A stretch of DNA of 64,000 bases from Candidatus Poribacteria bacterium (GCA_965215265.1 OZ244048.1:4769178-4833177); one strand, 5' to 3'; positions 24,259-27,572 are shown, counted from the first letter of the stretch. The notes: generated by a model from the sequence alone, not told the origin. Numbers and translations are program-made.

Positions 24259-24616
24259 CTGATGCATGCGGCGTTCAGTTGCAGGGCCCCCGGGCACCTG
24301 CGTGCGGACCCAGTTGGCTTATGCCAACGGTGCCGGTATGCCAGTCGCCTCAACTCCTTACCTGATAACACAAGTGCACTCACTCCTTCTTCTGTCTTTC
24401 GCGCGTTTATGAAAGACAGCCATAAGTGCACTTATGTTAACTTCTCCGTGTTTGGGCGGGGTTCCGGCTGCCTCTGTGCGCCGACCCGCCCGCCATCAAA
24501 CCGATAACTCTTTATGAACCTAACCGGTGCGATAACCGCATCGACAACGGACACATTGTCCGAAAGGATATTTTGAAATGAAAGATTGGAAGAACGCGAA
24601 AAAAGGCATCGTGGTA

Positions 24617-26058
24617 ATGAATAGAAAGTTTGTATCGATTTTGAGCGTGTTGTTTGCGGCGGTCCTCTGCGTTTCCATAGCGGGCTGTGAACGTATAAAT
24701 AAACCTGCGATGGATGTAGTAGTGCCACCGGCCGACGAAACCCCGGAGCCGGTTAATGGTTTACTTACCGAGCTATATATTCCCGGTGGCGTGCTTAAGA
24801 GGCTACCAGATTTCGACACGATAACGCCGGTTCGAACTTTGACCGCAGCGAATATAGATTTTCCTACGAGAGATTATACACAAGGCATTCCTGAACTGGG
24901 AATAGCTCTGCGTGAAGATTTCGCGATTCGGTTTCGCGGGCGGCTGATGGTTGAAACCGCCGGCAGCCACAACTTTAAAATTCGTTCCGATGATGGTGCT
25001 CAGTTATATATCAATGGAGGGCTTATCGTAGATAATGATGGGCTTCAAGGTTCGACAACTGCACAAGGGAGCGCGAGGCTCACGACAGGATTGCACGATG
25101 TCGAAATTCGGTATTTCCAAGGCCCCCTTTTCCAGCTAGGGCTGCAATGGTTTTGGGAGCCTCCCGGAGGGCCAGAACAGATTGTTCCACCAGAAGTGCT
25201 TTATGCGCCCGGTGATGACACAGTAGTGCCGCCCGTAGCGCCGCTGGTCGTAGACACTACGCCGCCGCCAGTCACCACCGCGCCGCCCGCAGGCATGGCA
25301 CTCATCCCCGCTGGCGACTTCCAGATGGGCAGTGAGGATGCTGATGCCCGGGATGACGAGCAGCCTGTGCATACAGTGCATGTGGACGCGTTCTATATGG
25401 ACACGCACGAAGTGACGAACGCCGAGTATAAAAGTTTTGTGCTGGCAAACCCCGAGTGGCAGAAGACGCGGATTCCGGATGCACTCCACAATGGTAATTA
25501 TCTAAACCATTGGGACGGTAATAACTATCCAGTGGGTAAGGGGGACCATCCTGTGATGAATGTGTCGTGGTATGGTGCGATGGCGTATGCTGCGTGGGCA
25601 GGGAAGCGTCTTCCAACGGAGGCGGAGTGGGAGAAAGCGGCACGCGGTGGGTTAGTAGGTAAGAGATACCCGTGGGGGGACACGATAACGCCGAACGATG
25701 CGAACTACGGTAATAATGTAGGCGGTACAACGGCTGTGGGGAGTTATGCTGCGAACGGATATGGGCTATATGACATGGCCGGCAACGTGTGGGAGTGGTG
25801 TCTTGATGAGTGGGATGCGAATTTCTATGCTAATTCTCCATCTCGGAATCCGTTGAGTGGGGTGAGTGGCGGAACGATAGCGAATGTGGATGAGATTGTA
25901 GATAACTACACAAATGTTACCTATTCTCGCGTGTTGCGCGGCGGTGGCTGGAACAATAATACACGCTACCTGCGCGCCGCTAATCGCTGCGGGAGTGCAC
26001 CAACGTTCACGACGACTTCCTCTACGGGTTCCGGTGTGCGAGGGCTGTTACTCCTTAA
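24617..26058 (+). CDS. Lipoprotein with PA14 domain and non-catalytic FGE-sulfatase (C-type lectin fold) domain; probable DGR target; frameshifted near 26010 (as sequenced reads to 26128)
   Basis: Lipobox IAGC; PA14 SDDGAQLYING; FGE motifs FQMGS, RLPTEAEWEKAARGG, NGYGLYDMAGNVWEWC, RVLRGG; canonical GFRCARAVTP* end lies in the -1 frame. Confidence 0.85.
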
Positions 26059-26079
26059 ATCTTTACCCCTTTACCCCTT

Positions 26080-26099
26080 CCGATCTGCGTGCAGATCGG
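26080..26099. other. Perfect GC-rich hairpin/cruciform downstream of the putative variable repeat
   Basis: CCGATCTGC-GT-GCAGATCGG, preceded by CTTTACCCCTTTACCCCTT; no U tail. Confidence 0.7.
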
Positions 26100-26263
26100 G
26101 TCGGCATAATTTATTAACTAATAGTTAAAAAAGCGTTATAAATAGGGTAAAATATTAACTATCTGTTAATTATCTGCTTATTTTTTGCTTGGTGCGTGCT
26201 GAACCCGGTTCGGTTTTGTGCTGGGCCAAACCGTATCTTGTCCGGCTCGTTTTATGCGCAGCG

Positions 26264-26414
26264 AAAGATAAAAGCAGAGGTGTGATGGTGAGTCGGCCGT
26301 GTGCCGAATGCTATCACACCTCTTTCTCTTTTTTCTCAGCCTGATTTATCTCTGCTTGAAAATGATTCCCTGATGTGTTATCATAAATAAAAAGTATAAG
26401 TTTTGAGAAAAAAG
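26264..26414 (+). repeat. Direct repeat copy 1 (hairpin plus promoter) upstream of rpn
   Basis: Near-identical to 27706-27873; AGAGGTGTGATGG...CTATCACACCTCT hairpin; TTGAAA-17-TATCAT. Confidence 0.9.
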
Positions 26415-26447
26415 CACTTGACAACTGATACGTTTTAGGAGTCTAAT

Positions 26448-27572
26448 ATGCAGAAGAAGGACATCCACGACTTTTTGTCCGAGATGTCTGTTTCGAACTT
26501 TTCGGATCGGAGCATACGCCGTTTATTAGAAAATACGGAAAACGTCCGGGGCTTGTTAGAAATCGTGTCGGCAGAACTCGCCGAACTGATTGACTTTGAG
26601 CATCTGGTTCTAATCAATAGGAGCCTGCTGCCCGCCACTCTCCGAGAACAAGAGGCAGACATTGTATATCGGGTGCCCTTCAAAAGTGATGGTGATGAGG
26701 GTGCGGCAGAGCTGCTCCTCTATCTGCTGATTGAACATCAATCGACGGTAGATGCGACGATGGGATTTCGTGTGCTTTTCTACATGATGCTAATTTGGGA
26801 CGCAGAGCGGCGGCGGTGGGCGGCAGAGAAGATGCCGAGAAGAGAGCGTGTATTGCCGCCGATTCTGCCCGTGGTGTTTTACACGGGGGAGCGGCGGTGG
26901 GAGAAGCCTCTGACACTTGAGGCGATGATGAATCTGCCTGCGGCGCTCTCTCGATTCGTTCCGAGATTTGACATCCTGTTTCTGAATCTGACAGGCACAG
27001 ACAAGGCGACGCTGACAGAGGCGGCGCATCCATTCGGGTGGCTGATGAGAGTGCTGCAACAAGGAGATGCGGACAAAGCGTCTATAAGCCGTGCCTTAGT
27101 GGAGACGTTGACGCAGTTGGCGGCGCTTGATGCGGCGGATTCGGGGCAGCGTAGGGAAGCGATAATGTATCTGGTATCGCTGATTGTGCATCGGCGTTCA
27201 AAGGAAGAGCAAGAAGAGTTGATAGAGCTGGTAGCCCGGCATACGAGTGACATGGAGGTAGCACCGATGGCAGAGACAATGGCCGAATTCCTCTTAGAAC
27301 GAGGCATAGCACAAGGCATAGAACGAGGCATAGAACAAGGGCGAGAAGAAGGGCGAGAAGAAGGGCGAGAAGAAGGGATTGAGCGAGGGGCGTGCCAGAA
27401 TGCTATCAAAAATATAACCGCCGTCCTCAATGCGCGATTCCCTCATTGTGACATACACACTGCCACGCAGAAACTCGAAACGCTTTCTGACCTCGAACAC
27501 CTCGAGCACCTGCTGCTGACAGCCGTCAAAGCCGATAGCTTTCAAGCATTCCTACAGGCTTTAGAACTATAG
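26448..27572 (+). CDS. Rpn/YhgA-like recombination-promoting nuclease (PD-(D/E)XK)
   Basis: ADIVYRV...LLIEHQS, PILPVVFYTGERRW, C-terminal (E/G/R/I) 4-aa repeats. Confidence 0.88.
   Translation: MQKKDIHDFLSEMSVSNFSDRSIRRLLENTENVRGLLEIVSAELAELIDFEHLVLINRSLLPATLREQEADIVYRVPFKSDGDEGAAELLLYLLIEHQSTVDATMGFRVLFYMMLIWDAERRRWAAEKMPRRERVLPPILPVVFYTGERRWEKPLTLEAMMNLPAALSRFVPRFDILFLNLTGTDKATLTEAAHPFGWLMRVLQQGDADKASISRALVETLTQLAALDAADSGQRREAIMYLVSLIVHRRSKEEQEELIELVARHTSDMEVAPMAETMAEFLLERGIAQGIERGIEQGREEGREEGREEGIERGACQNAIKNITAVLNARFPHCDIHTATQKLETLSDLEHLEHLLLTAVKADSFQAFLQALEL
27267..27572 (+). CDS. Putative in-frame internal small protein (RpnS-like antitoxin), 101 aa
   Basis: GGAGGT at 27254-27259 then ATG 27267 in frame (MAETMAEFLLERG). 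Confidence 0.6.
   Translation: MAETMAEFLLERGIAQGIERGIEQGREEGREEGREEGIERGACQNAIKNITAVLNARFPHCDIHTATQKLETLSDLEHLEHLLLTAVKADSFQAFLQALEL

Follow-up and report, generated by a model that had tools for sequence, protein, structure and literature searches.

The gene at positions 24578-26099 of the analyzed DNA, including its 3' tract, is very probably a remote target of the single diversity-generating retroelement (DGR) of its genome. The analyzed DNA, here referred to as the window, is a stretch of 64,000 nucleotides from Candidatus Poribacteria bacterium (GCA_965215265.1 OZ244048.1:4769178-4833177). Plain positions count from its first letter; positions of the single-contig genome of 4,833,177 bp, which was searched as a whole, carry the prefix C1. 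An earlier note made from the window sequence had proposed a surface lectin that is diversified in trans by a reverse transcriptase (RT) and a template elsewhere in the genome. This proposal is supported by the match of the gene to a template repeat (TR), by the cassette in which this TR is located, by a second allele of the gene and by a 3' tract that is shared with sister repeats.

The variable repeat (VR) of the target gene has a size of 117 nt (25925-26041, + strand) and is homologous to the TR at C1:1421032-1421146 with an identity of 85.5%. Comparison of the segment 25880-26110 with the whole genome resulted in 43 matches (42 blastn high-scoring segment pairs in a separate search). Among these was a non-coding copy of the kind that the earlier note had named as the expected template; it is adenine-rich and located directly 3' of the genes for the accessory protein Avd and an RT. 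Conversely, 25925-26041 is the best genomic match of this TR. All 15 substitutions between both repeats were found at adenines of the TR, so that 15 of 35 adenine positions were changed compared to none of the 80 remaining positions (p=1.4e-9). The 115 nt directly upstream of the VR shared only 70-81% identity with the other TR-matched targets. The perfect match of the VR at all non-adenine positions is therefore not simply a result of paralogy or shared ancestry.

An alternation of fixed and variable codons had been described for the end of the gene. This alternation was present over the last ~117 nt and coincided with the non-adenine and adenine positions of the TR. However, the codon list given for it changes the frame between TTC ACG and GAC TTC.

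The cassette at C1:1.418-1.421 Mb contains, in this order, a target of the formylglycine-generating enzyme (FGE) type, which ends with GFRCARAVTP before its stop codon, followed by Avd, the RT and the TR of 115 nt. Avd (118 aa) is encoded directly upstream of the RT and matched the model NF033474 (DivGenRetAVD) with 120.2 bits at a cut-off of 80. The RT is encoded by an intact open reading frame (ORF) of 354 aa with the motifs YVDD and IGNLTSQ, which ends 91 nt before the TR. The second motif fits [LIV]GxxxSQ, a mark of DGR RTs. In the profile libraries used here, which do not include a dedicated DGR-RT model, the best NCBIfam match of the RT was the group II RT model, below its cut-off. The TR itself is non-coding, contains 35 adenines and would read SRVLRGGSWNNNTRNLRAANRNRNTPTNTNNNNGFRCA in frame.

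Within the window no RT was found, the sole RVT_1 match of the genome being located at C1:1420096-1420737 (85 bits). This agrees with the initial statement that neither RT nor template was visible there, as both lie at C1:1.42 Mb. The distance between the VR of the window and the TR/RT cassette is 3.37 Mb; on a circular contig it would be 1.46 Mb.

Two further forms of the target gene were found. Protein P0004 (492 aa) is encoded on a contig of 60,242 bp from another assembly and shares 96% identity with the window protein over 95% of the latter; these two are the only members of their 90% protein cluster. Ahead of the VR a single one of 449 residues differs between them (E293Q). The VR of P0004 comprises 38 residues, of which 14 deviate from the translation of the TR, and 13 of these 14 can be reached by changes of adenines alone. 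P0004 is in frame, ends with GFRCARAVTP and carries a tract of 12 nt (four codons) at the site that is templated by (AAC)4 in the TR.

The second source were Logan contigs of four public runs of one study (X3, X4, X5 and X6), which show the presence of a sequence and not its absence. The unique 5' part of the gene was recovered with 0 differences, as 716 nt in X3, X5 and X6 and, in X4, as two pieces (186 and 499 nt). The region 25879-26051 was spanned in both X3 and X4 by a 174-nt contig, which differed from the window by five letters and one G inserted behind 26010; this insertion results in an in-frame tract of 15 nt. In X5 and X6 no contig of the VR of this gene was found at a likeness of at least 85%, which does not speak for its absence. 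The contig depth over the VR derived from the TR contig, from that of the paralog at C1:1795831 and, in X3 and X4, from the near-identical contig. Taken together, the window, P0004 and the X3/X4 contig represent at least three VR alleles of one gene. An exact pattern of 41 nt from the unique part of the gene had 0 matches in metagenome contigs, and a protein search for short fragments from the C-terminus gave a best match of 73% identity and thus no further alleles.

The target gene (24578-26058, + strand; from ORF list, translation and Pfam) encodes a putative lipoprotein that combines a PA14 domain with a domain of the FGE and C-type lectin (CLec) fold. Besides the start codon ATG at 24578 an alternative ATG is present at 24617, and the latter leads to a cleaner signal peptide. 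The putative lipoprotein signal peptide (24617-24688, + strand) was read from the translation. Its lipobox MNRKFVSILSVLFAAVLCVSIAG directly precedes the cysteine (...LCVSIAG-C, lipobox IAG-C), which is Cys37 of the window protein P0001 with the codon 24686-24688; the pattern was judged by eye on the translation. The PA14 domain (24914-25189, + strand; PF07691, aa 113-204, 54.8 bits, 1.2e-14) matched the PDB entries 6qdi and 6qe7 in a sequence search. A proline-rich linker connects it to the FGE-sulfatase domain (25289-26017, + strand; PF03781, aa 238-480, 206.7 bits, 6.4e-61), of which the VR forms the C-terminal part. The domain composition suggested at first was thus confirmed by both Pfam matches, and the lipobox fits by eye.

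The sequence search against PDB identified solved FGEs (4e-38) and the Treponema denticola protein TvpA (2y3c, 6e-12). The structural comparison was based on an AlphaFold model of P0004, the intact allele, of which only the FGE domain was used; here the predicted local distance difference test (pLDDT) score was >90 over residues ~231-492. Foldseek comparison of the model identified the FGE 2q17 (E 2e-24, TMt 0.73) and TvpA 2y3c (E 3.2e-14, TMt 0.66). The PA14 part of the model is unreliable, with pLDDT <50 over residues 36-118 and 152-230, because two-domain homologs were misaligned in the input alignment.

Both catalytic cysteines of FGE are absent, as had been noted before. In the alignment to 2q17 the TR encodes Ser (AGC, a variable codon) and Thr at these sites, and the window carries Gly and Thr. 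The FGE of S. coelicolor (2q17, ...RGGsylCHDSYCNRYRVAAR...) was aligned with the family scaffold RGG-SWNNNTRNLRAANR; around the cysteine sites the alignment is weak, with an i-Evalue of 4.5, and depends on RVLRGG and GFRCA as anchors. In human FGE the active-site cysteines are C336 and C341, numbered according to the titles of PDB entries which name the mutants C336S and C341S. Since the catalytic cysteines are not encoded, the target protein would be a binding scaffold rather than an FGE enzyme. It would presumably be exposed at the cell surface and bind a ligand.

Additionally, the leader and the region of the lipoprotein signal peptide (~24467-24667, MKDWKNAKKGIVVMNRKFVSIL...) were found to be a module common to several VR-bearing genes (blastn 80-95%). 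This shared module appeared as a peak of depth when the contigs of the runs were placed on the window. The middle domains of the target genes vary and include dockerin, cohesin, caspase-type and PEGA domains according to the precomputed Pfam annotation.

The homology between VR and TR ends with ...GGGTTCCGGTGTGCGA at 26041, and the TR is wholly divergent after ...GTGTGCGA. On the VR side the homology is followed by a VR-specific 3' segment absent from the TR (26042-26079, + strand), composed of GGGCTGTTACTCC, TTAA with the stop codon at 26056-26058, and two CTTTACCCC units (CTTTACCCCTTTACCCCTT at 26061-26079). About 25 copies of this segment are present in the genome. The 18-mer at the end of the homology occurred 36 times with at most 3 mismatches. 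In 25 of these 36 occurrences, the terminal VR ends, it was followed by CCTTAAA, and then mostly by the tract and an inverted repeat.

This inverted repeat, CCGATCTGC-GT-GCAGATCGG at 26080-26099, is perfect over 9 bp, is located 38 nt past the end of the homology and is a candidate for a hairpin or cruciform. When folded it forms a stem of 8 bp with a CGTG loop (-7.7 kcal/mol). A function as terminator was rejected, as the hairpin lacks a T run and was not called by the terminator scan. In total, 24 terminal copies carried the left arm, with 9 of 9 positions paired in 11 copies, 8 of 9 in five and 7 or fewer in eight. A perfect hairpin of the T:A type was present in all four VRs without any non-adenine mismatch to the TR, and a perfect hairpin in 4 of 13 terminal copies with at least 4 such mismatches.

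The repeat motif after the stop and the perfect hairpin without a U tail were located as the earlier note had described them, and both 3' tract and hairpin are common to most of the terminal VRs. The tract had also been likened to an initiation of mutagenic homing (IMH) sequence. It is indeed VR-specific and conserved at terminal VRs, which makes the segment a candidate for an IMH or target-recognition sequence. The homology, however, ends 17 nt before the TAA at 26056-26058, so that a classical IMH would begin within the coding sequence and not after the stop. By analogy with studied DGRs, the 3' tract and the hairpin may direct retrohoming.

In total, 28 full-length VR-like copies including the VR of the window were found in the genome. 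Non-adenine mismatches to the TR, counted over TR positions 3-115, numbered 0 in four copies, 1 in two, 2 in two and at least 4 in the remaining 20, here named class II. The copies without such mismatches were the VR of the cognate target, C1:1795831, C1:4150258 and the VR of the window; with a threshold of at most 2 mismatches eight VRs are TR-matched. One of the perfectly matched VRs, C1:4150258-4150367 (- strand), is out of frame since it has lost 5 nt at four sites. Every one of the 32 co-optimal alignments assigned each deleted base to an adenine of the TR.

Within class II, 15 copies could be compared without gaps. Here, 264 of 525 cells in the columns of TR adenines deviated from the class II consensus, compared to 68 of 1170 elsewhere. 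Additionally, at six non-adenine positions the class II VRs have a fixed letter in common that differs from the TR. The variation at adenine columns and the shared fixed differences make them look like an older generation of VRs, produced from a former version of the template and no longer updated. Examples are located at C1:999077, 1003474, 1564898 and 4441399. A second TR as their present source was rejected, as the 36 TR matches include no further adenine-rich copy and the genome contains one RT.

Furthermore, two orphan VR tails were observed at C1:2998873 (- strand) and C1:4393901 (- strand). They consist of the final ~30 nt of a VR, the 3' tract and the hairpin. Upstream of both, paralogs of the PA14 gene of the window (85-92% DNA identity) have lost the whole FGE domain, and both tails are followed by a YhgA-like gene.

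Among 30 related genomes a close RT homolog (83% identical) was present only in G004, which belongs to the same family but to another genus. Its cassette (C1:2796704-2802047 of that genome) shows the same order of target, Avd, RT and TR, and this TR encodes SRVLRGGSWNNSAQNVRVANRNRNTPTNTNNNIGFRCA. Three of the six letters that are fixed in class II are also present in the TR of G004. The VR adjacent to this cassette had 15 adenine and 0 non-adenine mismatches, and a VR at a distance of 186 kb had 15 and 1, respectively. In total G004 contained 12 VR-like matches including remote sites, two of them with at most 1 non-adenine mismatch. The genome G001, which belongs to the same genus as the one studied here, contained no RT and only two FGE-type DNA matches. 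For the PA14 part, none of the 30 relatives had an ortholog, apart from a match of 71% in G016.

As assembled, the target gene of the window is out of frame. The tract templated by (AAC)4 is 14 nt long in the window, 12 nt in the TR and 12 or 15 nt in the sister VRs; seven of these, including that of the cognate target, carry 3 extra nt, most of them within the (AAC)n tract. The frameshift site is located at 26010-26016 (+ strand; 2 nt more than the TR in the alignment), and these 2 nt put the stop codon TAA at 26056-26058 out of frame. The ORF according to translation table 11 reads through to 26128 with a nonsense tail of 29 residues, and the end GFRCARAVTP that is typical for the family lies before the TAA in the other frame. 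The stop that had been called canonical is therefore not that of the assembled ORF. All contigs placed over 26010-26013 in the four runs carried an insertion or deletion relative to the window, and the 14-nt form was not seen among them.

Heterogeneity of the VR is the most likely cause of the frameshift, which could then be an error of the consensus at variable columns or an out-of-frame allele that coexists with in-frame alleles. For the deletions that are confined to variable columns, as in C1:4150258-4150367, the consensus of a heterogeneous population is more likely than an RT that skips adenines.

Several observations weigh against the assignment of this gene as a DGR target. The gene is out of frame as assembled, and this copy would give a nonsense C-terminus. 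One of the 14 changed residues of P0004 (Ala to Val, GCC codon) cannot be reached by adenine mutagenesis of the TR. The positions of the five differing letters in the X3/X4 contig are not listed, so that their placement at adenines is not established, and the evidence for VR diversity comes from contigs and not from the read level. The fold of the hairpin was not better than that of shuffled sequences (z = -1.66; 10 of 200 shuffles folded equally well). Stem position 5 was G:C in ten copies, T:A in six and unpaired in eight, a covariation with a Fisher p=0.089 among copies that are related. Finally, the loop CGTG (or 2-nt GT) differs from the GRNA consensus described for phage DGRs in a passage of PMC3240598.

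A possible, if unlikely, origin of the frameshifts is the DGR itself: an RT that skips adenines or slips in the (AAC)n tract would produce them as true products and thereby lead to phase variation of the targets. This would explain that three tract lengths were found for one gene (12 nt in P0004, 14 nt in the window and 15 nt in X3/X4), that 5 of 5 deleted bases in the VR at C1:4150258 are located at TR adenines in the 32 co-optimal alignments and that seven sister VRs carry 3 extra nt, mostly in the (AAC)n tract. Slippage in AAC repeats is mentioned for DGRs in a passage of PMC12875486. However, this passage covers in-frame slippage in multiples of three only, a consensus of heterogeneous long reads would confine deletions to variable columns as well, and the 14-nt form of the window was seen in none of the four runs, as judged from contigs and not from reads. 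The wider proposal, in which one cassette serves modular lipoprotein lectins throughout the genome (eight TR-matched and 20 stale VRs) and the out-of-frame VRs are genuine retrohoming products that switch the targets on and off by phase, is unlikely as a whole.

We regard it as very unlikely that the gene is a dead target, whose VR was once written by the DGR and which is now a frameshifted pseudogene without expression or diversification. The loss of frame after about 26010 with its tail of 29 residues to 26128 would fit such a fate; so would the second TR-matched VR at C1:4150258-4150367, which is out of frame as well, and the two further PA14-gene paralogs that lack the FGE domain altogether. 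Yet none of the 80 non-adenine positions is substituted here, compared to at least 4 such substitutions in 20 of 28 VRs, the hairpin of the window is perfect, and in-frame alleles exist in P0004 and the X3/X4 contig. The 14-nt form on which the loss of frame depends was present in no contig over 26010-26013 in the four runs, bearing in mind that contigs show presence and not absence. Ordinary paralogy or gene conversion among FGE-domain genes without a retroelement can practically be dismissed: about 30 FGE-domain copies with 80-91% DNA identity are indeed present in the genome, but such processes would not limit the substitutions to the adenines of one of the two sequences (15 of 15), and the sequence in question is non-coding, rich in adenine (35 of 115 nt) and located directly after Avd and RT.

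The assignment as a remote DGR target leads to the following proposed course, which is modelled on studied DGRs. A complex of Avd and RT would copy the TR RNA with random misincorporation opposite to template adenines. The complementary DNA would then replace the homologous VR of 117 nt at the 3' end of the PA14 and CLec-fold lipoprotein gene. In this way, the face of a surface lectin that presumably binds the ligand would be rewritten at about 15-20 codons. Direction and site would probably be set by the VR-only sequence after GGGTTCCGGTGTGCGA and the hairpin 38 nt further on. Retrohoming at this target is thus proposed by analogy.

Downstream of the hairpin, the flank at 26100-26253 (+ strand) is found again in the spacer that separates the cognate target from avd and at a few other targets (about 7 copies by blastn, including C1:1419180-1419388 with 87%). 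Two AT-rich palindromes were observed within it, TTAACTAATAGTTAA at 26114-26128 and TTAAC-N5-GTTAA at 26155-26169. These may be the remnant of an operator or promoter.

Further downstream, a repeat element of ~200 nt is located at 26245-26456 with an internal hairpin GAGGTGTGATGGTGAG...CATCACACCTC and about 18-23 genomic copies. It precedes YhgA-like genes and is also found after the TR and several VRs without YhgA. In the window a YhgA-like gene is located behind the target at 26448-27572 (+ strand; Pfam Transposase_31, 98.6 bits). The genome contains 24 such copies, eight of which directly follow a VR end or the TR, including C1:1421523 after the TR. A role as partner of the DGR was rejected, as none of the eight copies in G004 is near the TR or VRs of that genome. 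This points to a local association with a mobile element rather than to a conserved component.

The system shares its basic organization with the DGR of T. denticola, for which passages of PMC4891356 and PMC5758913 describe one RT and TR with seven targets of the FGE fold, of which many are lipoproteins and most lie at a distance from the cassette. In both, a single RT and TR serve several proteins of the FGE subclass of CLec proteins with C-terminal VRs, as in TvpA. However, these passages name an HRDC and helicase/RNaseD-like accessory protein in T. denticola, whereas the accessory protein here is Avd. Furthermore, the window protein carries an N-terminal PA14 domain unlike the T. denticola targets, 28 full-length VR-like copies, eight of them TR-matched, were found here compared to the seven targets given in these passages, and the host is not a spirochete.

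For the Bordetella phage BPP-1, a GC-rich hairpin of 8 bp with a GRNA loop, located 4-34 bp past the VR, is required for efficient homing according to the relevant part of PMC3240598. The DGR of this phage has been reconstituted in E. coli (PMC12875486). As in BPP-1, the homology described here ends G+C-rich, and the VR side continues with sequence of its own and with a GC-rich inverted repeat (8-9 bp) which is absent from the TR. In contrast to the spacing of 4-34 bp in this part of PMC3240598, the hairpin of the window is located 38 nt past the end of the homology. The target of BPP-1 is described there as a phage tail-fibre gene in cis, whereas the target of the window is chromosomal and more than 1 Mb away from the RT.

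Thiohalocapsa sp. PB-PSB1 is similar in that, as far as the description in PMC10907252 goes, CLec VR domains are duplicated throughout the genome, some targets are served in trans and mobile elements adjoin the loci. That account gives nine DGR loci with 15 targets, linked to NACHT/STAND conflict systems, compared to a single RT and TR here. Unlike those of PB-PSB1 in the same account, the targets found here are of the lipoprotein type with PA14, dockerin, cohesin and caspase-type modules. FGE/SUMF1 itself belongs to the same Pfam family and has the same fold, with the Foldseek values given above, and differs by its catalytic cysteines, which are absent from the target.

Remote DGR targets as such are already known. 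In the part of the 2017 survey (PMC5758913) that deals with them, 10 DGRs had 29 targets at distances of more than 100 kb, with maxima of seven non-adjacent and eight tandem targets; the number of targets found here is at or above these maxima. What stands out in the present case is the fusion with PA14, the size of the family, the two generations of VRs, the insertions and deletions at adenine sites and the lineage of the host. A literature search for DGRs together with Poribacteria or sponge symbionts revealed no description of such a system; the supplements of surveys, which were outside its scope, may list it.

The finding illustrates that codon periodicity read without tools can reveal a DGR target that is served in trans by a retroelement at a distance of more than 1 Mb; to such remote targets contig-based surveys are blind, as stated in a passage of PMC8144416. 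The genome additionally offers a natural series, in which one TR can be compared with four perfect, four near and 20 drifted VRs whose hairpins are intact or decayed. This series could show which 3' features decide whether a VR remains a target. For a sponge symbiont, surface lectins with such hypervariability would be relevant to the recognition of host or phage.

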